64,000 bases of DNA from Escherichia coli (GTDB lineage Bacteria; Pseudomonadota; Gammaproteobacteria; Enterobacterales; Enterobacteriaceae), in assembly GCF_001677475.2 (NCBI RefSeq), contig NZ_CP015229.1. The stretch is one strand, 5' to 3'. The position numbers and the translations under genes were made by a program. The notes under the pieces were generated by a model. It saw only the letters and a program-made list of their open reading frames with translations, was not told the DNA's origin and did no database searches. Positions 2,365 to 59,350 of the stretch are shown in pieces. How positions within the stretch are numbered: position 1 is the stretch's first letter; every line of letters starts with the position of its first letter.

Positions 2365-3042
2365 ATGAAGTGGGACTGGATTTTCTTTGATGCCGATGAA
2401 ACGCTGTTTACCTTTGACTCATTCACCGGCCTGCAGCGGATGTTTCTTGACTACAGCGTCACCTTTACCGCTGAAGATTTTCAGGACTATCAGGCCGTTA
2501 ACAAGCCACTGTGGGTGGATTATCAAAACGGCGCGATCACTTCATTACAGCTTCAGCACGGGCGGTTTGAGAGCTGGGCCGAACGGCTGAACGTCGAGCC
2601 GGGTAAACTCAACGAAGCCTTTATTAATGCGATGGCGGAAATCTGTACGCCGCTGCCGGGCGCGGTTTCTCTGCTTAACGCCATTCGTGGCAACGCCAAA
2701 ATCGGCATCATCACCAACGGCTTTAGTGCCTTGCAACAGGTGCGTCTGGAACGCACGGGCCTGCGTGATTACTTCGATTTGCTGGTGATTTCCGAAGAAG
2801 TTGGCGTTGCCAAACCGAATAAGAAAATTTTCGATTATGCGCTGGAACAGGCGGGCAATCCTGACCGTTCACGCGTGCTGATGGTTGGCGACACTGCCGA
2901 GTCCGATATTCTCGGTGGCATCAACGCCGGGCTTGCGACCTGCTGGCTGAATGCGCACAATCGCGAGCAACCAGAAGGCATCGCGCCCACCTGGACCGTT
3001 TCTTCGTTGCACGAACTGGAGCAGCTCCTGTGTAAACACTGA
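2365..3042 (+). CDS. yjjG: HAD-family pyrimidine 5'-nucleotidase
   Basis: 225-aa ORF starting [15 protein letters not shown] (HAD DxD motif); K-12 synteny. Confidence 0.88.
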
Positions 3043-3132
3043 TTGCCTCCCCCCCGTTGATGGGTAAAATAGCCGCAATTTTTCGTTTTCAACAAGCGCG
3101 GCGCGATGCCGCTTACTCAAGAAGAAAGAATT

Positions 3133-3207
3133 ATGACGTTGTCTCCTTATTTGCAAGAGGTGGCGAAGCGCCGCACTTTTGCCATTATTTCTCACCCCAA
3201 TAATTAA
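3133..3207 (+). pseudogene. prfC: Displaced 5' end of prfC (first ~21 codons) left at attL, running into phage DNA to a stop
   Basis: ATG at 3133 encodes [22 protein letters not shown] then diverges (NN*) after the att core; the full prfC is at 54307. Confidence 0.8.
3184..3197. other. attL core (ATTATTTCTCACCC), left prophage junction
   Basis: Identical 14-bp sequence recurs at 54355..54368 inside the intact prfC 5' end; flanking ~20 bp match with one mismatch. Confidence 0.75.
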
Positions 3208-3361
3208 GCCTAAATTAAAGCTCTTTTACTTTTTCAAAGTCCTTTCAGTTAATTGATGTTTGGTTTTATAAGTCATTTAAATACAGTTAGTTATGTGGCT
3301 TCTTTAATTGAAAATTCTTTCATGTAACTTTAAATCGATCAGGTTGCTTTCATCAAAAATC

Positions 3362-3418
3362 TGTACATATGCTTGTACATAATGTACAAAGCAGCAGAGG
3401 TGTTTTGCGATTTGTACA
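3362..3418. promoter_or_regulatory. Cluster of four TGTACA-containing repeats (TTGTACATA / ATGTACAAA) between attL and int; candidate integrase arm-type sites
   Basis: ctgTACAtatgctTGTACATAATGTACAAAg ... tTGTACAag; the same 9-mers recur near attR (54172..54286). Confidence 0.4.
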
Positions 3419-3427
3419 AGGTGAGTA

Positions 3428-4663
3428 ATGGCGCTGTCTGATGCGTGGTTGCGTTCAGTCGTTGGAAAGGAACGTGATAAGGTTTTGGTTAAATCCGATC
3501 GTGATGGTCTGTCTGTCAGAGTATCACCGAAAGGTCGCGTAGTGTTCCAATATCGTTATCAATGGGCAGGGAAAGGTGAGCGCCTTGATATCGGAACTTA
3601 CCCGGCAACTGGATTAAAAGAGGCCAGAGAAGAAGTTATCCGTCTCCGTGGTGAACTCGAGTCAAACCGCAATCCACGATTAGTCAAGCAGGCTGAAAAA
3701 CGAAAAGCTACTGAAGCCATGACGGTAGAGTCTGTGATCCGTGCCTGGTATGAAGCATATTGTGTAAAAAATAAAAAAGGTTCTGAACAGATACTCCGCT
3801 CGTTTGAGCTGCACCTGTTCTCTAAAATCGGGAATATCCCTCACGATGCAGCTACATTGCATGATTGGTTAGAAGTCCTGGAGCCTCTTAGCACCAAGAC
3901 TCCAGCAATAGTAGACCGATTGCTAATTAACGCAAAGCAGGCTCATGTCTGGGCGTATAAGAGAAAGCTCATTGAAACTCGCCCACTGTCGGATATCACG
4001 GGTAAAGATATGGATATCCGTAAAGGTCAGAAAAAACGGTTTCTGACACATGATGAAATTAACATCCTTTATGCTGCGATCGATGGTTCTCGAATGGTTC
4101 CTAAATACCGAGCCTTCATTAAACTATTGCTGCATTTTGGTTGCCGTAGTTCAGAGCTAATTACTGCTAGGGTGGATGATTTTGATTTCATAAATAAGGT
4201 ATGGACTGTACCACCAGAACGACATAAGACTGGGGACATAACAGGCGAACCGCTAAAGCGGCCCATTATTGAACCGGTTGAAGAGCTTATAAAATACGTT
4301 ATCTCTATGAACAACGGTTCCGATATGCTTTTTACTAAGGAAGGAAGCAGGGAGCCAGTTGGTCGGACATCATTGCAGTCGCTGCCTTACAATTTAATGC
4401 AGTTCGCATGGCGACGTTTGGGGTATCAATTTCCTCATTGGTCTCTTCATGATTTGAGACGAACAGCACGAACAAACTTTTCTGATCTTACTGCTCCTCA
4501 TATTGCTGAAATAATGCTTGGTCATAAACTGCCAGGTGTATGGCAAGTTTATGATAAGAGCGATTATCTAGAAGAACAGCGTAAAGCTTACTGGGCATGG
4601 TGGGAGAGGGTTGAATCGATCGTTACTTGTACTGACTTAATCTCCAACGGACAGTTTGCGTAG
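3428..4663 (+). CDS. int: Tyrosine integrase, P4-type (N-terminal arm-binding domain plus catalytic domain)
   Basis: 411-aa ORF directly inside attL; C-terminal HDLRRTARTN and catalytic Y region typical of tyrosine recombinases; SD AAGGTGAG before ATG. Confidence 0.9.
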   Translation: MALSDAWLRSVVGKERDKVLVKSDRDGLSVRVSPKGRVVFQYRYQWAGKGERLDIGTYPATGLKEAREEVIRLRGELESNRNPRLVKQAEKRKATEAMTVESVIRAWYEAYCVKNKKGSEQILRSFELHLFSKIGNIPHDAATLHDWLEVLEPLSTKTPAIVDRLLINAKQAHVWAYKRKLIETRPLSDITGKDMDIRKGQKKRFLTHDEINILYAAIDGSRMVPKYRAFIKLLLHFGCRSSELITARVDDFDFINKVWTVPPERHKTGDITGEPLKRPIIEPVEELIKYVISMNNGSDMLFTKEGSREPVGRTSLQSLPYNLMQFAWRRLGYQFPHWSLHDLRRTARTNFSDLTAPHIAEIMLGHKLPGVWQVYDKSDYLEEQRKAYWAWWERVESIVTCTDLISNGQFA

Positions 4664-10083: not shown

Positions 10084-10627
10084 GCATCACTGGAAAGTGG
10101 AAAAACAGCCTGAGTGGTACGTGAAAGCTGTCAGAAAAACTATCGCGGCGTTGCCGGGGGGTTACGCTGAAGCTGCTGAGTGGCTGGATGTAACAGAGAA
10201 CGCTTTATTCAACCGCCTTCGTGCAGATGGCGATCAGATTTTCCCGCTGGGATGGGCAATGATTTTACAGCGCGCTGCTGGCACTCACTACATTGCGGAT
10301 GCTGTCGCACAGTCTGCTGGTGGGGTGTTTGTATCGCTTCCTGAAATTGAGGAAGTAGAGAACGCCGATATAAACCAGCGCCTGCTGGAAGTCATCGAAC
10401 AAATCGGGAGTTACTCAAAGCAGATTCGTTCGGCAATCGAAGATGGGGTAGTGGAGCCACACGAGCAGACAGCAATTAATGATGAGTTGTATCTGTCGAT
10501 TTCGAAGCTCCAGGAGCATGCGGCACTGGTCTACAAAATTTTCTGCGCTCCAGAAAAGAGTGACGCCCGCGAGTGTGCAGCTCCGGGCGTCGTGGCGTTT
10601 TGTGTCTGTGGAGAAACTAACGCATGA
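10076..10627 (+). CDS. YdaT-like protein (CII-position regulator of Rac-type immunity regions)
   Basis: 183-aa ORF overlapping the cro-like gene; GTG start with SD AGGAG; position and size match racR-ydaS-ydaT arrangement. Confidence 0.55.
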   Translation: MGKHHWKVEKQPEWYVKAVRKTIAALPGGYAEAAEWLDVTENALFNRLRADGDQIFPLGWAMILQRAAGTHYIADAVAQSAGGVFVSLPEIEEVENADINQRLLEVIEQIGSYSKQIRSAIEDGVVEPHEQTAINDELYLSISKLQEHAALVYKIFCAPEKSDARECAAPGVVAFCVCGETNA

Positions 10628-10772
10628 ACAGTTTAACGGCAAATAACCGTTTGTCGCAACAGCTGGTGGTCAGCGTCTCTGAACACCTGTTGTTACGGCA
10701 TGAATGCAGATTACCAAATCACCAGGCTGTAAGTAACCACAGAGAACTTTACCTGACTGTGGGGGGCGAGTT

Positions 10773-10952
10773 GTGCAGGAACTTAACCGCTGGTTTCGTG
10801 ACGGAAGAGGGCTTTATGTTCATGTTATTCGTTGGGAACCAGAAACACAGCGCGTTATCTATCTTCGCAAAGACTACCCGCATGAGTGCTTTAGTCCTTT
10901 GTGGAAATTCAGGCGTGATTTTGTTGAGTGTGACGGACCACCAACACATTGA
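10773..10952 (+). CDS. Hypothetical 59-aa protein (GTG start), upstream of a terminator
   Basis: GTG preceded by GGGGGG; ORF MQELNRWFRDGRGLYVHVIRWEPETQRV...; below the track length cutoff; hand-translated. Confidence 0.3.
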   Translation: MQELNRWFRDGRGLYVHVIRWEPETQRVIYLRKDYPHECFSPLWKFRRDFVECDGPPTH

Positions 10953-11037
10953 TTCTGCCATTCCGGGACGTTACACTGTTCAGGCACCTTATAAAACGGG
11001 TGCCGGGCGTGGAAACCCGGAATTCACCAAAGCGCAC

Positions 11038-11060
11038 AACCGCGCTCTTGCGGTTTTTTT
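11038..11060 (+). terminator. Rho-independent terminator (tR1-like) containing a boxA-like CGCTCTT
   Basis: AACCGC-GCTCTT-GCGGTT stem followed by TTTTTTTG. Confidence 0.5.
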
Positions 11061-11229
11061 GTGTCATGAGCAGCATTACGCCCAAATTATGGTGGGGCGT
11101 GCAGGGCCAACTTCGGTTGGGCCGGGTTCTTTGGTGACCGGTATTTCCACCCCTGTACGTCTCACCACCAATAAGGTCGTGGAAAGCCTTGGTGGTGAGT
11201 TATTAAAAATCACCAAAGAGGCTGCCATC

Positions 11230-11775
11230 ATGGCTACGATCCCAACCCTCACTCAACCTGAAATTGCCATCGTTGATGGTCAGGTTGTTACTTCATCCCT
11301 GGCTGTTGCCAACTTCTTCTCCAAACGTCATGACGATGTACTGAAAAAGATCCGCACGCTTGAATGCTCAGCATCATTCACTGCCCGCAATTTTTCGGTG
11401 AGTGATTACACTGATTGCACAGGTCGCAAACTTCATTGCTACCAAATCACACGCGACGGTTTTGCGTTTCTTGCTATGGGTTTCACGGGTAAACGTGCTG
11501 CCCAGTTCAAAGAGGCATATATCAATGCCTTTAACCAGATGGAGAAACAGCTTTCAAAGCCCGCTGTACCGAGCGACGTTGCACATAACGCCAGCGTTCT
11601 CTGTTCCTACATTTCATCAATTCATCAGGTCTGGCTGCAGCAGCTTTATCCTATGTTGGCAAAAGCCGAATCTCCGCTGGCTGTTAGCTTATATGATTAT
11701 ATTAATGATGCTTCGGCGCTGGCCTGCCTCATAAATTTGTCGCTGAACCCTTCAGAGGTAAGGGGGCGCAAATGA
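11230..11775 (+). CDS. Rha-family phage regulatory protein / antirepressor-like
   Basis: C-terminal part of track ORF 10624..11775; start set at MATIPTLTQPEIAIVDGQVV with SD AAAGAGG; Rha-like N-terminus. Confidence 0.6.
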   Translation: MATIPTLTQPEIAIVDGQVVTSSLAVANFFSKRHDDVLKKIRTLECSASFTARNFSVSDYTDCTGRKLHCYQITRDGFAFLAMGFTGKRAAQFKEAYINAFNQMEKQLSKPAVPSDVAHNASVLCSYISSIHQVWLQQLYPMLAKAESPLAVSLYDYINDASALACLINLSLNPSEVRGRK

Positions 11776-19294: not shown

Positions 19295-19594
19295 AAAAAT
19301 TCCTTAATACTGATAACTTGGCGCACTATACACACGTTCCTGAAGAAAGCTATAGTTTTTTGATGGGGTTGAAGATGGCTGGATGTCTAAAATAAACATT
19401 GCTTCATATGTTCAACTATGCGTTAATGATTGCGTCGGTTTGAAGAACAGACGATATACGAAGTAGTTTACTAAAGCAGTTCTCATTTCAGGTGTTATTC
19501 ACTTATTCCTTCTTTGAGTCTCTCCAATTAAGTACGAAGTCGTTTCTGTTATACAAGCCATTTATGCCGAAAGGCTCAAGTTAAGGAATGTAGA

Positions 19595-19810
19595 ATGTCA
19601 AATAAAATGACTGGTTTAGTAAAATGGTTTAACGCTGATAAAGGTTTTGGCTTTATTTCTCCTGTTGATGGTAGTAAAGATGTGTTTGTGCATTTTTCTG
19701 CGATTCAGAATGATAATTTTCGAACCTTATTTGAAGGTCAAAAGGTTACCTTCTCTGTAGAGAGTGGTGCTAAAGGTCCTGCAGCAGCAAATGTCATAAT
19801 TACTGATTAA
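19595..19810 (+). CDS. cspB: Cold-shock protein CspB
   Basis: 71-aa [44 protein letters not shown]...; near-identical to recalled CspB; divergent from the cspF-like gene as in Qin. Confidence 0.9.
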
Positions 19811-20092
19811 AATTAATAGTTTGTCTGTATACGATAACGAAGAAGGCTGATGCCTGAGTGGAGATACAGACAGAGTGGTGAATATTGGATCTCTTTAATA
19901 AATAGTAAGGAGATCCAATACATGAAACAATGGCCAGCATATTTGGCAATAACTTAATCAGGAAAAGTATGCTAACCATTGTGGTGAAGTGCAGGTTTGC
20001 TGCATGAATAGTTTTACAGCAGAAGCTAACTGCTAGCATAGCAAAACAAAGTGCGTAAGTGGATGACTCCCACAAAAAGCACCACAATATTA

Positions 20093-22683: not shown

Positions 22684-23045
22684 ATTAATATTAAATCGGA
22701 TTATTTTTAGCGCTGAATGTGAAATTTAAATAAAAAGGACTCTTCCATGAGTCAAAATCCTTGAAATCTTAAGGGTAAGATAAAAGGTCATTAGACAGAA
22801 TGACACGTTTTATTAATAAATAAAGCTATTGTTTCATTCGTGTGTTTTTCTTTACAAAAGTAATCCTTGCTATGGTTGGTTAATCATGCGTTAATGGTGT
22901 TCTGGTTTGTTACAAAATTATCTGAAGCAGTCATTGTTATAATTTTATTATTTGTACCTCTTGAGATTTCCTTGTTGGTTTTTCTCTCTGATATTTTTTT
23001 CGGACCATTCTGCCCAAGGGCTAACTTCTTCAAAAGGTAATAATG

Positions 23046-23258
23046 ATGTCTAACAAAATGACTGGTTTAGTGAAATGGTTTAACCCTGAAAAAGGTTTTG
23101 GTTTCATCACGCCGAAAGATGGTAGCAAAGATGTGTTTGTCCATTTCTCAGCTATTCAGAGCAACGATTTCAAAACGTTAACTGAGAATCAGGAAGTCGA
23201 ATTTGGTATTGAGAACGGACCTAAAGGCCCCGCGGCTGTTCATGTTGTGGCACTTTGA
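23046..23258 (+). CDS. cspI: Cold-shock protein CspI
   Basis: [70 protein letters not shown] matches recalled CspI. Confidence 0.9.
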
Positions 23259-23461
23259 GGTAGAAAATATTACAAACCATATTCACTTTAGATGCCCGTG
23301 TTGCCATGGTTCTCAGTATAGAACATCATCTTTTGATGTTTCTGACAGGAATCCTTTCGGGGCAAAATGTATCTTTTGTAAATCAATGATGATTACATTT
23401 GATAATATTTCACAATACTTAAATGTTAGCCGTCTGTCGTTAGATTTAAGAAAGTGAAAAT

Positions 23462-40943: not shown

Positions 40944-42370
40944 ATGGGTAAAGGAAGCAGTAAGGGGCATACCCCGCGCGAAGCGAAGGACAACCTGAAG
41001 TCCACGCAGTTGCTGAGTGTGATCGATGCCATCAGCGAAGGGCCGGTTGAAGGTCCGGTGGATGGATTAAAAAGCGTGCTGCTGAACAGTACGCCGGTGC
41101 TGGACACTGAGGGGAATACCAACATCTCCGGTATCACGGTGGTGTTCCGTGCCGGTGAGCAGGAGCAGACACCGCCGGAGGGGTTTGAATCCTCCGGCTC
41201 CGAGACGGTGCTGGGTACGGAAGTGAAATATGACACGCCGATCACCCGCACCATTACGTCTGCAAACATCGACCGTCTGCGCTTTACCTTCGGTGTACAG
41301 GCACTGGTGGAAACCACCTCAAAGGGTGACAGGAATCCGTCGGAAGTCCGTCTGCTGGTTCAGATACAACGTAACGGTGGCTGGGTGACGGAAAAAGACA
41401 TCACCATTAAGGGCAAAACCACCTCGCAGTATCTGGCCTCGGTGGTGGTGGATAACCTGCCGCCGCGCCCGTTTAATATCCGGATGCGCAGGATGACGCC
41501 GGACAGCACCACAGACCAGCTGCAGAACAAAACGCTCTGGTCGTCATACACCGAAATTATCGATGTGAAACAGGGCTACCCGAACACGGCACTGGTCGGC
41601 GTGCAGGTGGACTCGGAGCAGTTCGGCAGCCAGCAGGTGAGCCGTAATTATCATCTGCGCGGGCGTATTCTGCAGGTGCCGTCGAATTATAACCCGCAGA
41701 CGCGGCAATACAGCGGTATCTGGGACGGAACGTTTAAACCGGCATACAGCAACAACATGGCCTGGTGTCTGTGGGATATGCTGACCCATCCGCGCTACGG
41801 CATGGGGAAACGTCTTGGTGCGGCGGATGTGGACAAATGGGCGCTGTATGTCATCGGCCAGTACTGCGACCAGTCAGTACCGGACGGCTTTGGCGGCACG
41901 GAGCCGCGCATCACCTGTAATGCATACCTGACCACACAGCGCAAGGCGTGGGATGTGCTCAGTGATTTCTGCTCGGCGATGCGCTGTATGCCGGTATGGA
42001 ACGGGCAGACGCTGACGTTCGTGCAGGACCGACCATCAGATAAGGTGTGGACCTATAACCGCAGTAATGTGGTGATGCCGGATGATGGCGCGCCGTTCCG
42101 CTACAGCTTCAGCGCCCTGAAGGACCGCCATAATGCCGTTGAGGTGAACTGGATTGACCCGAACAACGGCTGGGAGACGGCGACAGAGCTTGTTGAAGAT
42201 ACGCAGGCCATTGCCCGTTACGGTCGTAATGTCACGAAGATGGATGCCTTTGGCTGTACCAGCCGGGGGCAGGCACACCGCGCCGGGCTGTGGCTGATTA
42301 AAACGGAACTGCTGGAGACGCAGACCGTGGATTTCAGCGTGGGTGCTGAAGGGCTTCGCCATGTACCGGG
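40944..42370 (+). pseudogene. J: Tail tip/host-specificity protein J, 5' fragment (~476 codons) truncated by IS insertion
   Basis: Lambda J-like N-terminus ending ...GLRHVPG at the IS junction; track ORF runs a few codons into the IS to a stop. Confidence 0.9.
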
Positions 42371-42463
42371 TATGAGACGACAATAACTCAGTCCGCCTGG
42401 CGCCGATTATTCTGGCCGGTTTTGTAACCTGAGTGTCATTTACATGATCCAACAGGAAATGGC

Positions 42464-43963
42464 GTGACGCTCAATACTTCTCAGGTCAGTTACTATATGA
42501 CTCAGCGTAAGAAAGGTATAACTCAGCATATCTCGGCCATGAAGGCTGGTATCTCAGTCCGTTCTGGTCGTCGGATCGAAAAAGGAGAGTGGGCAAAAAA
42601 CAGTGTTCGGCACTGGCGCACACGCAAAGATCCTCTGGAAGCTGTGTGGGACAGCATGCTTGTTCCTCTGTTGAAAGAGAGGCCGGCTCTGACACCAACA
42701 ACTCTACTGGAGATGCTACAGGATAAATATCCCGGCCAGTACCCCAACAGCCTTCGAAGAACAATGCAACGGCGGGTTCGCGAATGGAAACTACAGTATG
42801 GTACAGAGCAGGAGGTCATGTTCCGCCAGCAACATCAGCCCGGCCTGCGAGGCCTGTCGGACTTTACTGAACTGAAAGGTGTAGTTGTCACCATCGCCGG
42901 TAAGTTGTTGGCGCATAAGTTGTATCACTTCCGTCTGGAATGGAGCCACTGGAGCTGGATGCGGGTTGTTCTGGGTGGTGAGAGCTTCTCTGCTCTGGCT
43001 GAAGGCCTGCAGGAAGCCCTCGGACAACTGGGCGGAGTGCCGGTAGAACATAAAACGGACAGCCTGAGGGCAGCATGGAAACAACAGGGCGAAGATGGAC
43101 GCCGCGAGCTGACTGAGCGTTATGCTACTCTCTGTCAGCACTACGGAATGCAGGGCGTACACAATAATGCCGGTCGGGGCCACGAAAATGGCTCGGTTGA
43201 AAGTGCCCACGGACATCTGAAAAGGCGTATCTGTCAGGCGCTGATACTGCGGGGCAGTAACGACTTCAGCACCATAGAAGAATATCAGGCCTTCATCACT
43301 CAGCAGGTTATGCGGCACAACCGTAACAATCAGGATCTGGTCAAGGAAGAACGTCTTCATCTGAAACCGCTGCCGCTTCGTCGCAGTGCTGACTATGATG
43401 AGCTGACTGTGAGGGTTAGTCGCAGCAGTACCATCAATGTGAAGCACGTCGTCTACAGCGTACCTTCCCGGCTTGTAGGTCAACTGTTACGGGTCAGGTT
43501 ATGGGACGATCGTCTGAGCTGTTACGTTGGCAGCAGCGAGGTCATGAGCTGCCCTCGCGTCAGACCAGAAAAAGGGAAGACGCGGGCCCGTCGTATCGAC
43601 TTCCGACATGTGATCGACAGTCTGGCAAAAAAGCCCGGTGCGTTCTGCCATGCAACGCTGAGAAATGACATCCTGCCGGACGATGAATGGCGGAGGCTGT
43701 GGCGTCGCTTATGTAATCATCTGGAGCCCGATATGGCAGGAAGGCTGATGGTACATGCCCTGAAACTGGCTGCAGGATACGACGATATCTCAGTCGTGGC
43801 AAAAGGTATGGAGCAGATGCTGAATACCCCGGGAAACGTGGATCTGCACCGGCTGATGCGCTTCCTGGGTATAAAAGAAAAGGCGTTGCCGGTAGTCAAT
43901 GTGATACAGCATAACCTGAGCAGTTATGAGCAACTACTGCGTGGCAAGGGAGGTTCGCAGTGA
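42464..43963 (+). CDS. istA: IS21-family transposase IstA
   Basis: 499-aa ORF with N-terminal HTH and DDE-type core; followed by overlapping IstB. Confidence 0.8.
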   Translation: MTLNTSQVSYYMTQRKKGITQHISAMKAGISVRSGRRIEKGEWAKNSVRHWRTRKDPLEAVWDSMLVPLLKERPALTPTTLLEMLQDKYPGQYPNSLRRTMQRRVREWKLQYGTEQEVMFRQQHQPGLRGLSDFTELKGVVVTIAGKLLAHKLYHFRLEWSHWSWMRVVLGGESFSALAEGLQEALGQLGGVPVEHKTDSLRAAWKQQGEDGRRELTERYATLCQHYGMQGVHNNAGRGHENGSVESAHGHLKRRICQALILRGSNDFSTIEEYQAFITQQVMRHNRNNQDLVKEERLHLKPLPLRRSADYDELTVRVSRSSTINVKHVVYSVPSRLVGQLLRVRLWDDRLSCYVGSSEVMSCPRVRPEKGKTRARRIDFRHVIDSLAKKPGAFCHATLRNDILPDDEWRRLWRRLCNHLEPDMAGRLMVHALKLAAGYDDISVVAKGMEQMLNTPGNVDLHRLMRFLGIKEKALPVVNVIQHNLSSYEQLLRGKGGSQ

Positions 43964-44715
43964 GCAATATCCATCACCTTGAACATAGCCTGCGTAAACT
44001 ACGCCTGACACGAGTTGGAGCTGAATGGCACGCTCTGGAAAAACGAGCGCTGGCAGAAGGCTGGACACCATCGCGCTATCTTCTGACGCTATGCAATGAA
44101 GAACTCCTGTGGCGCGAGAGTGAAAAACTGCGTCGTTATAAAAAGGAGGCCCGGTTGCCAGTTGCCAAAACGCTGAGCGAATACGACTTCAGTCAGGTGC
44201 CGGAACTGAATGGAGCTCAGTTCCGGCAACTCTGTGAAACGACAGACTGGGTTGATGCAGGAGAAAACGTTCTGCTGTTCGGAGCCAGCGGGTTGGGGAA
44301 AAGCCATCTGGCGGCAGCGATCGTGGATGGCGTAGTAGGTCAGGGCTACCGGGCCCGGTTCTACAGCGCAGGAGAGCTGTTGCAGGAACTACGTAAAGCC
44401 AGAGCTCAGTTGAAACTGAATGAGCTGCTACTGAAACTGGATCGCTACCGGGTGATAGTGGTGGATGATCTTGGCTATGTCAAACGCGATAGTGCCGAAA
44501 CGGGTGTGCTGTTCGAGTTAATAGCGCATCGCTATGAACGTGGGAGCCTGGTGATAACCAGTAACCATCCGTTCAGCATGTGGGGCAGCATCTTCGTGGA
44601 TGAGACTATGGCGGTGGCTGCGGCAGACAGGCTGATCCATCACGGATATATGTTCGAACTGAAAGGGGAAAGCTACAGGAAAAAGACAGCGAAGGCAGTA
44701 ACAAGCGCGACTTGA
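43960..44715 (+). CDS. istB: IS21-family ATP-binding helper IstB
   Basis: Walker A (LLFGASGLGKSHLA), Walker B (VVDDLGYV) and C-terminal DRLIHHG motif. Confidence 0.88.
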   Translation: MSNIHHLEHSLRKLRLTRVGAEWHALEKRALAEGWTPSRYLLTLCNEELLWRESEKLRRYKKEARLPVAKTLSEYDFSQVPELNGAQFRQLCETTDWVDAGENVLLFGASGLGKSHLAAAIVDGVVGQGYRARFYSAGELLQELRKARAQLKLNELLLKLDRYRVIVVDDLGYVKRDSAETGVLFELIAHRYERGSLVITSNHPFSMWGSIFVDETMAVAAADRLIHHGYMFELKGESYRKKTAKAVTSAT

Positions 44716-44781
44716 TGTCGCCCTGAAGGGTGCGGCCAGTATAGTTGGCGCGAGTCGGCAAAACTAGTTGACGTCTAATAA

Positions 44782-46773
44782 CCGGGCGATGTCATTGAAA
44801 TCTGCGATGATGACTATGCCGGTATCAGCACCGGTGGTCGCGTGCTGGCGGTGAACAGCCAGACCCGGACGCTGACGCTCGACCGTGAAATCACGCTGCC
44901 ATCCTCCGGTACCACGCTGATAAGCCTGGTTGACGGAAGTGGTAATCCGGTCAGCGTGGAGGTTCAGTCCGTCACCGACGGACTTAAGGTGAAAGTGAAC
45001 CGGGTTCCTGACGGCGTTGCAGAATACAGCGTGTGGGGGCTGAAGCTGCCGACGCTGCGCCAGCGCCTGTTCCGCTGCGTGAGTATCCGTGAGAACGACG
45101 ACGGCACGTATGCCATCACTGCCGTGCAGCATGTACCGGAAAAAGAAGCCATCGTGGATAACGGGGCGCACTTTGACGGCGACCAGAGCGGCACGGTGAA
45201 TGGTGTCACGCCGCCAGCGGTGCAGCACCTGACCGCCGAAGTCACCGCAGACAGCGGGGAATATCAGGTGCTGGCGCGCTGGGACACGCCGAAGGTGGTG
45301 AAGGGCGTGAGCTTCCTGCTCCGTCTGACCGTAACAGCGGATGACGGCAGTGAGCGGCTGGTCAGCACGGCCCGGACGACGGAAACCACATACCGCTTCA
45401 CGCAACTGGCGCTGGGGAACTACAGGCTGACAGTCCGGGCGGTAAATGCGTGGGGGCAGCAGGGCGATCCGGCGTCGGTATCGTTCCGGATTGCCGCACC
45501 GGCAGCACCGTCGAGGATTGAGCTGACGCCGGGCTATTTTCAGATAACCGCCACGCCGCATCTTGCCGTTTATGACCCGACGGTACAGTTTGAGTTCTGG
45601 TTCTCGGAAAAGCGGATTACCGATATCAGGCAGGTTGAAACCACAGCCCGCTATCTTGGTACGGCGCTGTACTGGATAGCCGCCAGTATCAATATCAAAC
45701 CGGGCCATGATTATTACTTTTATATCCGCAGTGTGAACACCGTTGGCAAATCGGCATTCGTGGAGGGCGTCGGTCGGGCGAGCGATGATGCGGAAGGTTA
45801 CCTGGATTTTTTCAAAGGCAAGATAACCGAATCCCATCTCGGTAAAGAGCTGCTGGAAAAAGTTGATTTGACGGAGGATAACGCCAGCAGACTGGATGAG
45901 TTTTCGAAAGAGTGGAAGGACGCTAACGATAAATGGAATGCCATGTGGGGCGTCAAAATTGAGCAGACCAAAGACGGCAAACATTATGTCGCGGGTATTG
46001 GCCTCAGCATGGAGGACACGGAGGAAGGCAAGCTGAGCCAGTTTCTGGTTGCCGCTAACCGTATCGCGTTTATTGACCCGGCAAACGGGAATGAAACGCC
46101 GATGTTTGTGGCGCAGGGCAACCAGATATTCATGAACGACGTGTTCCTGAAGCGCCTGACAGCCCCCACCATTACCAGCGGTGGCAGTCCTCCGGTATTT
46201 TCCCTGACATCAGACGGAAAGCTGACCGCTAAAAATGCGGATATCAGTGGTAGTGTGAATGCGAACTCAGGAACGCTCAACAATGTCACGATTAACCAGA
46301 ACTGTACGATTAAGGGCATGCTGGAGGCGACTCAGGTCAGAGGTGACTTCGTTAAAGCTGTATCCAAATCATTTCCGAAACAGGCTGGTACGTGGGGTAA
46401 CACGGAAACACCAAACGGGACGGTTACAGTCACCATCAGCGATGATCATAACTTTGACCGTCAAATCATTATTCCGCCCATTATCTTTAACGGAATAGCG
46501 TATAGCGATCCGGGAAGTGGTAATAACCCGGGAGGTACAAGATACACGGGTTATGGTTTTGAAGTTCGCAAAAACGGTGTATTAATCGCATCCAGAGAAA
46601 CTAAAGGGGCCATTCCCGGTAGCTACAGTGCGGTTATTGATATGCCGAGTGGCAGGGGAAGCGTCACTCTGGAGTTTAAGGTTTTCCATAAAGGCAATCA
46701 GTGGGCAGGTAATATCACCGACTGTACGGTGATTGTGACCAAAAAAGCCGCTTCCGGCATCAGTATTCGTTGA
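44782..46773 (+). pseudogene. J: Tail tip/host-specificity protein J, 3' fragment
   Basis: Resumes in frame ([29 protein letters not shown]...) exactly as lambda J continues after ...HVPG. Confidence 0.9.
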
Positions 46774-51353: not shown

Positions 51354-51929
51354 ATGGATTTCAGAATGAGTGAACAACCACGGACCATAACAATTTATAA
51401 TCTGCTGGCCGGAACTAATGAATTTATTGGTGAAGGTGATGCATATATTCCGCCTCATACAGGTCTGCCAGCAAACAGTACCGATATTGCACCGCCAGAT
51501 ATTCCGGCTGGCTTTGTGGCTGTTTTCAACAGTGATGAGGCATCGTGGCATCTCGTTGAAGACCATCGGGGTAAAACCGTCTATGACGTGGCTTCCGGCG
51601 ACGCGTTATTTATTTCTGAACTTGGCCCATTACCGGAAAATGTCACTTGGTTATCCCCGGAAGGGGAGTTTCAGAAGTGGAACGGCACAGCCTGGGTGAA
51701 GGATACGGAAGCAGAAAAACTGTTCCGGATCCGGGAGGCGGAAGAAACAAAAAACAACCTGATGCAGGTAGCCAGTGAGCATATTGCGCCGCTTCAGGAT
51801 GCTGCAGATCTGGAAATTGCAACGGAGGAAGAAATCTCGTTGCTGGAAGCATGGAAAAAGTATCGGGTATTGCTGAACCGTGTTGATACGTCAACTGCAC
51901 AGGATATTGAATGGCCAGCACTGCCGTAG
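51354..51929 (+). CDS. tfa: Tail fibre assembly protein Tfa
   Basis: [41 protein letters not shown]... matches recalled lambda Tfa; SD GAGGTG upstream. Confidence 0.9.
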
Positions 51930-53838: not shown

Positions 53839-54087
53839 TTAGTGAACAAACCACTCGTCAGCAGACTCCCAGGTATCTTTCAGAGTTTCCTGAACAAAAG
53901 TTTTAGCTGAATCTTTATCGGCGGTGCGCGTAACAGAAAGGCCATCGTTGCTGGTGGCTTTTACGATCACCTCTACATCGTCATAACGCTTACTGATGCG
54001 TCGAGTTAATTCTTCCTTTAACGCATCCACAGCACCGTTTGGCATTTTAGTCATTTTCTCTTTGGCTATGCAGATCTCAATACGCAT
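53839..54087 (-). CDS. dinI: DinI-family damage-inducible protein
   Basis: 82-aa [13 protein letters not shown]...[11 protein letters not shown] matching the DinI family; two LexA boxes upstream. Confidence 0.85.
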
Positions 54088-54102: not shown

Positions 54103-54146
54103 CTGTGTTTGTATACAGTGTTATTTTTAACTGTATGAATAAACAG
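54103..54146. promoter_or_regulatory. Two tandem LexA boxes (CTGT-N8-ACAG) in the dinI-like promoter
   Basis: CACTGTGTTTGTATACAGTG at 54101..54120 and AACTGTATGAATAAACAGTG at 54129..54148. Confidence 0.75.
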
Positions 54147-54171: not shown

Positions 54172-54286
54172 TGTACAAATGTTCTTTGGCTACAAATACA
54201 CCTACTGATCATGTTCTGCTATGCTCTGATACCTCCAAAATGTACAATCAGCGGCATGAATTTTTCTTTGTACATATGATTGTACA
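54172..54286. promoter_or_regulatory. TGTACA-containing repeats near attR (ATGTACAAA, TTGTACATA x2); candidate arm-type sites overlapping the phage-borne prfC promoter region
   Basis: Same 9-mers as at 3362..3418 near attL. Confidence 0.4.
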
Positions 54287-54306
54287 TAATCAAAGAGACA
54301 ACAATT

Positions 54307-55893
54307 ATGACAAGCCTTTTGGCCGCAGAGGTAGCGAAAAGAAGAACCTTTGCAATTATTTCTCACCCGGACGCCGGTAAAACAACCATCACCGAGAAGG
54401 TGCTGCTGTTCGGACAGGCCATTCAGACCGCCGGTACAGTAAAAGGCCGTGGCTCTAACCAGCACGCTAAGTCGGACTGGATGGAGATGGAAAAGCAGCG
54501 TGGGATCTCCATTACCACGTCTGTGATGCAGTTTCCGTATCACGACTGCCTGGTTAACCTGCTCGACACCCCGGGGCACGAAGACTTCTCGGAAGATACC
54601 TATCGTACTCTGACGGCGGTGGACTGCTGCCTGATGGTTATCGACGCTGCAAAAGGTGTTGAAGATCGTACCCGCAAGCTGATGGAAGTTACCCGTCTGC
54701 GCGACACGCCGATCCTCACCTTTATGAACAAACTTGACCGTGATATCCGCGACCCGATGGAGCTGCTCGATGAAGTTGAGAACGAGCTGAAAATCGGCTG
54801 TGCACCGATCACCTGGCCGATTGGCTGCGGCAAGCTGTTTAAAGGCGTTTACCACCTTTATAAAGATGAAACCTATCTTTATCAGAGCGGTAAAGGCCAC
54901 ACCATTCAGGAAGTCCGCATTGTTAAAGGGCTGAATAACCCGGATCTCGATGCTGCGGTTGGTGAAGATCTGGCGCAGCAGCTGCGTGACGAACTGGAAC
55001 TGGTGAAAGGCGCGTCTAACGAGTTCGACAAAGAGCTGTTCCTTGCGGGCGAAATCACTCCGGTATTCTTCGGTACTGCGCTGGGTAACTTCGGCGTTGA
55101 TCATATGCTGGATGGCCTGGTGGAGTGGGCCCCTGCGCCGATGCCGCGTCAGACTGATACCCGTACCGTAGAGGCGAGCGAAGACAAATTTACCGGCTTC
55201 GTATTTAAAATTCAGGCCAACATGGACCCGAAACACCGCGACCGCGTGGCGTTTATGCGTGTGGTGTCCGGTAAATATGAAAAAGGCATGAAGCTGCGCC
55301 AGGTGCGTACTGCGAAAGATGTGGTGATCTCCGACGCGCTGACCTTTATGGCGGGTGACCGTTCGCACGTTGAAGAAGCGTATCCTGGCGATATCCTCGG
55401 CCTGCACAACCACGGCACCATTCAGATCGGCGACACCTTTACCCAGGGTGAGATGATGAAGTTCACCGGTATTCCGAACTTCGCGCCAGAACTGTTCCGT
55501 CGTATCCGCCTGAAAGATCCGCTGAAGCAAAAACAGCTGCTTAAAGGGCTGGTACAGCTTTCCGAAGAGGGCGCGGTGCAGGTGTTCCGTCCGATCTCCA
55601 ACAACGATCTGATCGTTGGTGCGGTTGGTGTGCTGCAGTTTGATGTGGTGGTAGCGCGTCTGAAGAGCGAATACAACGTTGAAGCAGTGTATGAGTCAGT
55701 CAACGTTGCCACTGCCCGCTGGGTAGAATGTGCGGACGCGAAGAAATTCGAAGAGTTCAAGCGTAAGAACGAAAGCCAACTGGCGCTTGATGGCGGCGAT
55801 AACCTCGCTTACATCGCTACCAGCATGGTCAATCTGCGCCTGGCGCAGGAACGTTATCCGGACGTTCAGTTCCACCAGACCCGCGAGCATTAA
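54307..55893 (+). CDS. prfC: Peptide chain release factor 3 (RF3), reconstituted with a phage-derived 5' end
   Basis: [27 protein letters not shown]... with GTPase motifs; first ~16 codons come from the prophage side of attR. Confidence 0.92.
54355..54368. other. attR core (ATTATTTCTCACCC) within prfC codons 17-21
   Basis: Exact copy of the 14-bp sequence at 3184..3197. Confidence 0.75.

Positions 55894-58374: not shown

Positions 58375-59350
<976 letters not shown>

Follow-up and report, generated by a model that had tools for sequence, protein, structure and literature searches.

The prfC gene in the analyzed stretch of Escherichia coli DNA (64,000 nucleotides; hereafter, the window) is interrupted by a 51,171-bp lambdoid prophage at positions 3198–54368, flanked by two copies of ATTATTTCTCACCC. 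In the explanation that we consider very probable, a cdtI-type lambdoid phage has integrated in prfC, and a patch of phage DNA has rebuilt the gene for full-length RF3.

The phage would enter prfC by site-specific recombination carried out by a tyrosine recombinase, with the crossover within the 14-bp identity, that is, in the Ile-Ile-Ser-His-Pro codons just before the P-loop (SHPDAGKT). With a site so close to the 5' end, integration parts the prfC body from its promoter, its ribosome-binding site, and its first 16–17 codons. The left side of attP brings a diverged version of the prfC translation start and of the first 16 codons. Fused in frame at attR, this version encodes a full-length RF3 that departs from the native protein solely in its N-terminal tail, which is naturally variable. 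The native promoter region and start remain at attL, where they form a dead-end ORF of 24 codons directed toward int. We infer that the phage DNA also supplies a working prfC promoter. The arrangement is common and already known, and a preliminary description of this DNA had read it correctly, with minor corrections given below.

Structure of the Integration Site

The two copies of the att core, defined by the repeat and by alignment, occupy positions 3184–3197 (attL) and 54355–54368 (attR); the prophage body (3198–54354) is delimited by the repeat spacing and by identity to phage PhiR63_1, and the 51,171 bp are counted core to core. The core occurs twice in the window, at the two junctions only. 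Taken alone, an exact 14-mer repeat is not significant, as chance alone would produce about 7.6 such pairs in a sequence of 64 kb; the significance of the junctions comes from a 42-nt in-frame repeat with 81% identity (3156–3197 vs. 54327–54368), from its location on either side of an integrase and phage genes, and from the exact Campbell-type match to K-12 attB and free-phage attP.

At the left junction, the host gene yjjG (2365–3042, plus strand; identified by its ORF and by the RefSeq annotation of matching genomes and of K-12) lies upstream of the stranded native prfC 5' end (3133–3207, plus strand), located exactly where the preliminary description had put it. Its ORF has 24 codons, from an ATG at 3133 to a TAA stop at 3205–3207, and is made of 22 native codons followed by NN and a stop of phage DNA. 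The start is identical to that of K-12 prfC, and the corresponding fragment in other lysogens is labeled by PGAP as a truncated pseudogene. The attL side retains the native promoter region along with the native prfC start.

At the right junction, a phage dinI-like gene (53839–54087, minus strand; NCBIfam PRK10597, RefSeq and phage annotations) is divergent from the hybrid prfC (54307–55893, plus strand). The latter matches TIGR00503, the prfC equivalog model, with 1089.6 bits over residues 6–528; the intact gene described earlier at attR is thus confirmed, its ORF running to 55893 and encoding 528 amino acids. The ATG is at 54307, while the mechanical ORF begins at a TTG at 54280. In another lysogen, RefSeq annotates the hybrid as full-length prfC (WP_000202564.1). 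The att core is inside the prfC ORF, and the in-frame substitute brought by the element restores this ORF to full length. The core had been assigned to prfC codons 17–21, which holds in the hybrid numbering; natively these are codons 18–22, since the hybrid is one residue shorter.

Several other features were seen near the junctions and in the host flanks. Two LexA-box-like palindromes (CTGT-N8-ACAG) at 54103–54118 and 54131–54146 precede the dinI-like gene (minus strand); on the plus strand, the first of them scores as a terminator-like hairpin as well. Features at 4–87, 227–309, and 59150–59329 comprise a minus-strand tRNA gene at the window's left edge and naRNA4 matches; three naRNA4 (REP-derived) matches are found in the host flanks.

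Phage-Borne Codons of the Hybrid Gene

In the free phages 2H10 and cdtI, codons 1–16 of the hybrid prfC (54307–54354, plus strand) are joined to phage DNA without a break. The preliminary description considered residues 3–8 as phage-supplied; indeed, amino acids change only there, from the native LSPYLQ to SLLAA, but all of codons 1–16 are phage DNA. The N-terminal tail of RF3 is naturally variable: MTLSPYLQE in E. coli and Salmonella, MSNSPFLQE in Xenorhabdus, MSGNKVE in Shewanella, and MTKQAAE in Pseudomonas.

In the nine codons for EVAKRRTFA, the phage and the host differ at eight bases, and all eight differences are synonymous, none non-synonymous; they include two CGC-to-AGA arginine codons. 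No random set of eight substitutions out of 200,000 preserved this peptide. Because all of the observed differences are synonymous and none of the random sets keeps the peptide, the phage segment appears to have been kept to encode RF3, which is strong evidence for selection on the phage-borne prfC codons at the level of the encoded peptide. The start-codon context AATTATGAC is common to the phage copy and the host, and 269 bp to the left of the core are nearly invariant in four phages with different cargo. The hybrid RF3 should be functionally equivalent to the native protein.

Integrase and Putative Arm-Type Sites

The integrase gene (3428–4663, plus strand) encodes a tyrosine integrase of the cdtI-phage type, as judged by its Pfam domains and its identity to the cdtI and PhiR63_1 proteins. 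The domains Arm-DNA-bind_3 (E-value 5e-16), Phage_int_M (3e-6), and Phage_integrase (1e-16) form the P4/IntSXT-type architecture. The protein is 100% identical to the PhiR63_1 integrase and shares 396/402 residues (99%) with that of phage cdtI, and 33 phage records have an integrase with at least 95% identity. A review of tyrosine recombinases groups the cdtI integrase with IntSXT as a prfC-targeting cluster (PMC8138268). More distant relatives, with 84% (Salmonella), 65% (Xenorhabdus), 50% (Shewanella), and 51% (Pseudomonas) identity, are located 200–230 bp downstream of a stranded piece of prfC that breaks off at IISHP. The IMG/VR scan yielded 117 integrase relatives, of which 80 were kept; these were 96–100% identical and mostly trimmed at int, and therefore uninformative on attP diversity.

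An integrase 96% identical to that of the prophage is also present in PLSDB record NZ_CP019281.1 (E. coli, 33,754 bp), filed as a plasmid; it could represent a prfC phage that was excised or binned wrongly.

Motif clustering places four TGTACA repeats in the P' arm, from the core toward int (3362–3418), and four in the P arm, ahead of the substitute prfC start (54172–54286), so that 8 of the 16 TGTACA copies in the window fall into the two clusters. In the P arm, the module TTGTACATATGATTGTACATAAT stops 16 nt short of the hybrid ATG, and a near-identical counterpart is located in the P' arm at 3361–3383; each of the clusters contains the module TGTACATATG(A/C)TTGTACATAAT. Similar repeats are seen upstream of int in the Salmonella, Xenorhabdus, Shewanella, and Pseudomonas relatives, and in R997. 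The repeats are probably arm-type integrase sites.

Candidate Expression Signals at the Two Junctions

The best candidate for the native prfC promoter, predicted by a consensus scan, is TTGCCT-16-TAAAAT (3043–3070, plus strand). Its score is 13.0, against a window-wide median of 6.2, 95th percentile of 10.3, and maximum of 13.7. It has been left at attL, 51 kb from the body of the gene. In the 220 bp from dinI to the hybrid ATG, strict consensus and weight-matrix scans found no convincing sigma-70 promoter; the best match upstream of the hybrid prfC, TTTTCT-17-CATAAT, scores 7.8 (vs. the median of 6.2), and its leader would be only some 10 nt long. Since the closest phage genes upstream are read in the other direction, read-through is unlikely to help, and if prfC is expressed, a promoter is needed within the interval between dinI and the ATG. 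The earlier claim that the prfC promoter is replaced thus stands in its first half, the native candidate being left at attL, while no convincing replacement is predicted; replacement of the promoter by phage DNA is nonetheless taken as likely. A search of Rfam gave no match at either junction.

The same data allow for a two-way rewiring, unlikely in our opinion, in which RF3 would be made from a phage-controlled, possibly Int-responsive, weaker promoter that overlaps the arm sites and has a very short leader, while the host prfC promoter would feed int and set basal excision. The only sigma-70-like candidate upstream of the hybrid ATG has its -10-like element (CATAAT, 54285–54290) inside a TGTACA repeat, R997 shows an equal repeat-to-ATG geometry, and two LexA-box-like sites are located 160–200 bp upstream; on the other side of the prophage, the stretch from the native promoter candidate to int has no predicted terminator. 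However, the interaction of Int with the repeats is putative, and the layout is not conserved, as the R997 core faces xis, with int on the other strand; further, the expression of SXT int is undetectable without SetCD (PMC4344509). The geometry noted earlier, with the displaced host promoter pointing into the co-directional int, is correct, but it was not created by integration: in attP of the free phage, int is already preceded by a prfC-like upstream region that belongs to the phage and by a 23-codon mini-ORF; therefore, integration swaps upstream regions and makes no new arrangement. If the rewiring were true, about one in eight E. coli genomes would have altered termination and quality-control capacity, a hidden lysogenic-conversion trait.

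Also unlikely is an effective knock-out of prfC in lysogens, the reading frame being repaired and the promoter lost, so that the gene would be silent or much reduced, and the cell RF3-deficient. It would agree with the lack of a good promoter match upstream of the hybrid start; also, E. coli can live without RF3, and viable lysogens are therefore no proof of expression. In a comparative study, Bobay et al. list prfC among the genes "disrupted" by prophages (PMC3603311), and for elements inserted in dusA, the replacement promoter was shown experimentally and gives lower expression of the target gene than the native one (PMC8409611). Yet the synonymous nature of all eight base differences in the phage-borne codons indicates selection on the peptide, and the conserved start-codon context and the near-invariance of the 269 bp across the four phages likewise speak against a silent gene; moreover, SXT is reported to supply a new prfC promoter at the same site (PMC8409611).

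Direction of Exchange and Population Frequency

In a four-way alignment, attB of K-12 MG1655 equals the left part of attL joined to the right part of attR, and attP of the free phage 2H10 equals, base for base, the left part of attR joined to the right part of attL; attP of phage cdtI agrees with that of 2H10. The attP reconstructed from the prophage matches both phages, with the substitute prfC 5' end and the 14-bp core placed between dinI and int, and the MTSLLAAE start with its upstream DNA adjoins dinI and int in both. In K-12 MG1655, yjjG is directly followed by prfC starting with MTLSPYLQ.

Among 5,426 complete E. coli genomes, 4,717 have an empty site with the MTLSPYLQ start, counted as genomes matching the reconstructed attB in one piece. 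The attL junction (yjjG, the prfC fragment, int) is present in 699 of the 5,426 genomes, and the attR junction (the dinI-like gene beside prfC) in 657. No empty-site genome with MTSLLAAE directly after yjjG was seen; in the 657 genomes with the attR junction, phage DNA is always upstream.

The preliminary description had suggested aligning both junctions to the unoccupied K-12 prfC, and had considered that MTSLLAAE could turn out to be the native allele. The alignment supports a phage-supplied MTSLLAAE start, and unoccupied sites carry MTLSPYLQ, both in K-12 and in the 4,717 genomes. Since MTSLLAAE lies between dinI and int in free phages, and MTLSPYLQ is found at unoccupied sites, MTSLLAAE is phage-supplied, along with all of the DNA upstream of it. 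The reverse exchange, with MTSLLAAE as the native host allele and the attL fragment brought by the phage, has nothing in its favor beyond the symmetry of the repeat itself and is rejected as extremely improbable, being refuted by the K-12 and other empty-site genomes, where MTLSPYLQ directly follows yjjG, and by the four-way alignment, where 2H10 and cdtI hold MTSLLAAE between dinI and int.

The Prophage and Related Phages

By its gene content, the element is a lambdoid prophage, with genes for CI, Cro, Q, lysis, terminase, portal, major head/capsid, and J tail proteins; the reading as an ICE or an island was rejected, as the body is a lambdoid phage genome. PhiR63_1 is 95.6–99.9% identical to the prophage in three regions: from int to lysis and at the right end the values are 99.5–99.9%, and in the tail genes about 96%, apart from one 368-bp tail-fiber segment at 87.8%; the head genes differ.

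A gap relative to PhiR63_1, together with PHROG matches to a transposase and to DnaC-like/IstB proteins, marks an IS21-family insertion (42371–44780, plus strand) with IstA at 42464–43963 and IstB at 43960–44715. It splits the tail gene J into halves at 40944–42386 and 44842–46773, and the prophage copy is probably defective for making infectious particles.

The phages cdtI, 2H10, and PhiR63_1 and the Stx1a and Stx2c phages of E. coli CC119, described at prfC in PMC10132054, all have integrases 96.6–100% identical to that of the prophage. The attP of cdtI and 2H10 is essentially identical to the prophage attP, including the substitute prfC start, and the Stx2c and Stx1a phage records annotate the same 14-bp duplication as the prophage core. 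The prophage differs from the cdtI-type phages in a mosaic fashion, in the head and tail-fiber genes and in having the IS21-family insertion in J. No cdt or stx cargo was seen among the prophage ORFs examined.

Several Rfam matches are found within the prophage. Two matches to the cspA thermoregulator (159 and 111 bits; 19434–19873 and 22889–23304), in the Q-to-lysis region, correspond to phage-borne cold-shock protein genes and a 200-nt direct repeat D1. Adjacent matches to isrK and C4 antisense RNA (10984–11172) are inside a Rha-like ORF (10624–11775), and a full-length match to IS009 (221 bits; 51697–51895) overlaps a tail-fiber assembly gene.

Comparison With Other Elements Targeting 5' Gene Ends

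The SXT/R391 element R997 shares with the prophage the target gene and codons (IISHP, just before the P-loop). Like that of the prophage, its attP carries its own substitute prfC start fused in frame, and paired GTACAAA repeats are found in both arms, in one of them right before the substitute ATG. However, the vehicle is a conjugative element and not a phage, and the substitute peptide MANQDFLNEINKRR is unlike that of the prophage; xis faces the core in R997, with int on the opposite strand, whereas in the prophage int faces the core; and the identity with attB reaches further in the 3' direction (CACCCTGATGCC). The R997 and prophage integrases are only 38% identical, while PMC2791158 defines the SXT/R391 family by an integrase nearly identical to IntSXT. 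Likewise, the conserved conjugation and SetR/SetCD backbone of the family is not seen in the prophage, whose body is a lambdoid phage genome, and no conjugation genes were found among the prophage ORFs annotated through near-identity to PhiR63_1.

The circular record of R997 (NZ_KY433363.1) joins GCTATCATC to ATTATTTCCCACCC, resulting in four Ile codons in a row. The doubled Ile-Ile is located exactly at the end-to-start join of the record and looks like an artefact, a partial core duplication from circularizing an integrated copy for deposit.

The integrases of Gifsy-1 (analyzed at the ends of record NC_010392) and of Klebsiella phage Kpn_R1 are 46–47% identical to the prophage integrase. The target here is lepA (EF4) instead of prfC; as with prfC, this is a translational GTPase gene, and attP carries a substitute lepA 5' end (MKNIRNFSIIAHID, then N and a stop). 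The crossover is just before the LepA P-loop, at the codons homologous to RF3 IISHP, and the arm repeats are of the TGTCCA/TGGACA type, vs. TGTACA in the prophage. Integrases of this clade have apparently switched from one paralogous translational GTPase gene to another while keeping to the same structural position. The dusA-specific elements resemble the prophage in being inserted in the 5' end of a conserved gene with an altered N-terminus (PMC8409611), and differ from it in the target gene.

In Moraxella phage Mcat19, an integrase with 40% identity is preceded by TGTACATAAT repeats, like those of the prophage. A stranded host fragment ending with MMPTPSHLTTISIIGH is located there after a yciA-like thioesterase gene and before the integrase gene.

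Discussion

The finding leaves the current understanding unchanged. Two unrelated vehicles, a lambdoid phage and an ICE, target the prfC codons just ahead of the P-loop, and in lepA, a paralogous GTPase gene, the homologous codons are the target of a related integrase. The locus provides a clean example of the principle that elements targeting the 5' end of a conserved gene must bring both a coding patch and expression signals. As the gene is rebuilt, prfC should not be scored as "disrupted" in lysogens, contrary to PMC3603311. The hybrid prfC allele is present in about 12–13% of complete E. coli genomes, where annotation and pangenome pipelines would otherwise split RF3 into two alleles or call the attL fragment a pseudogene.
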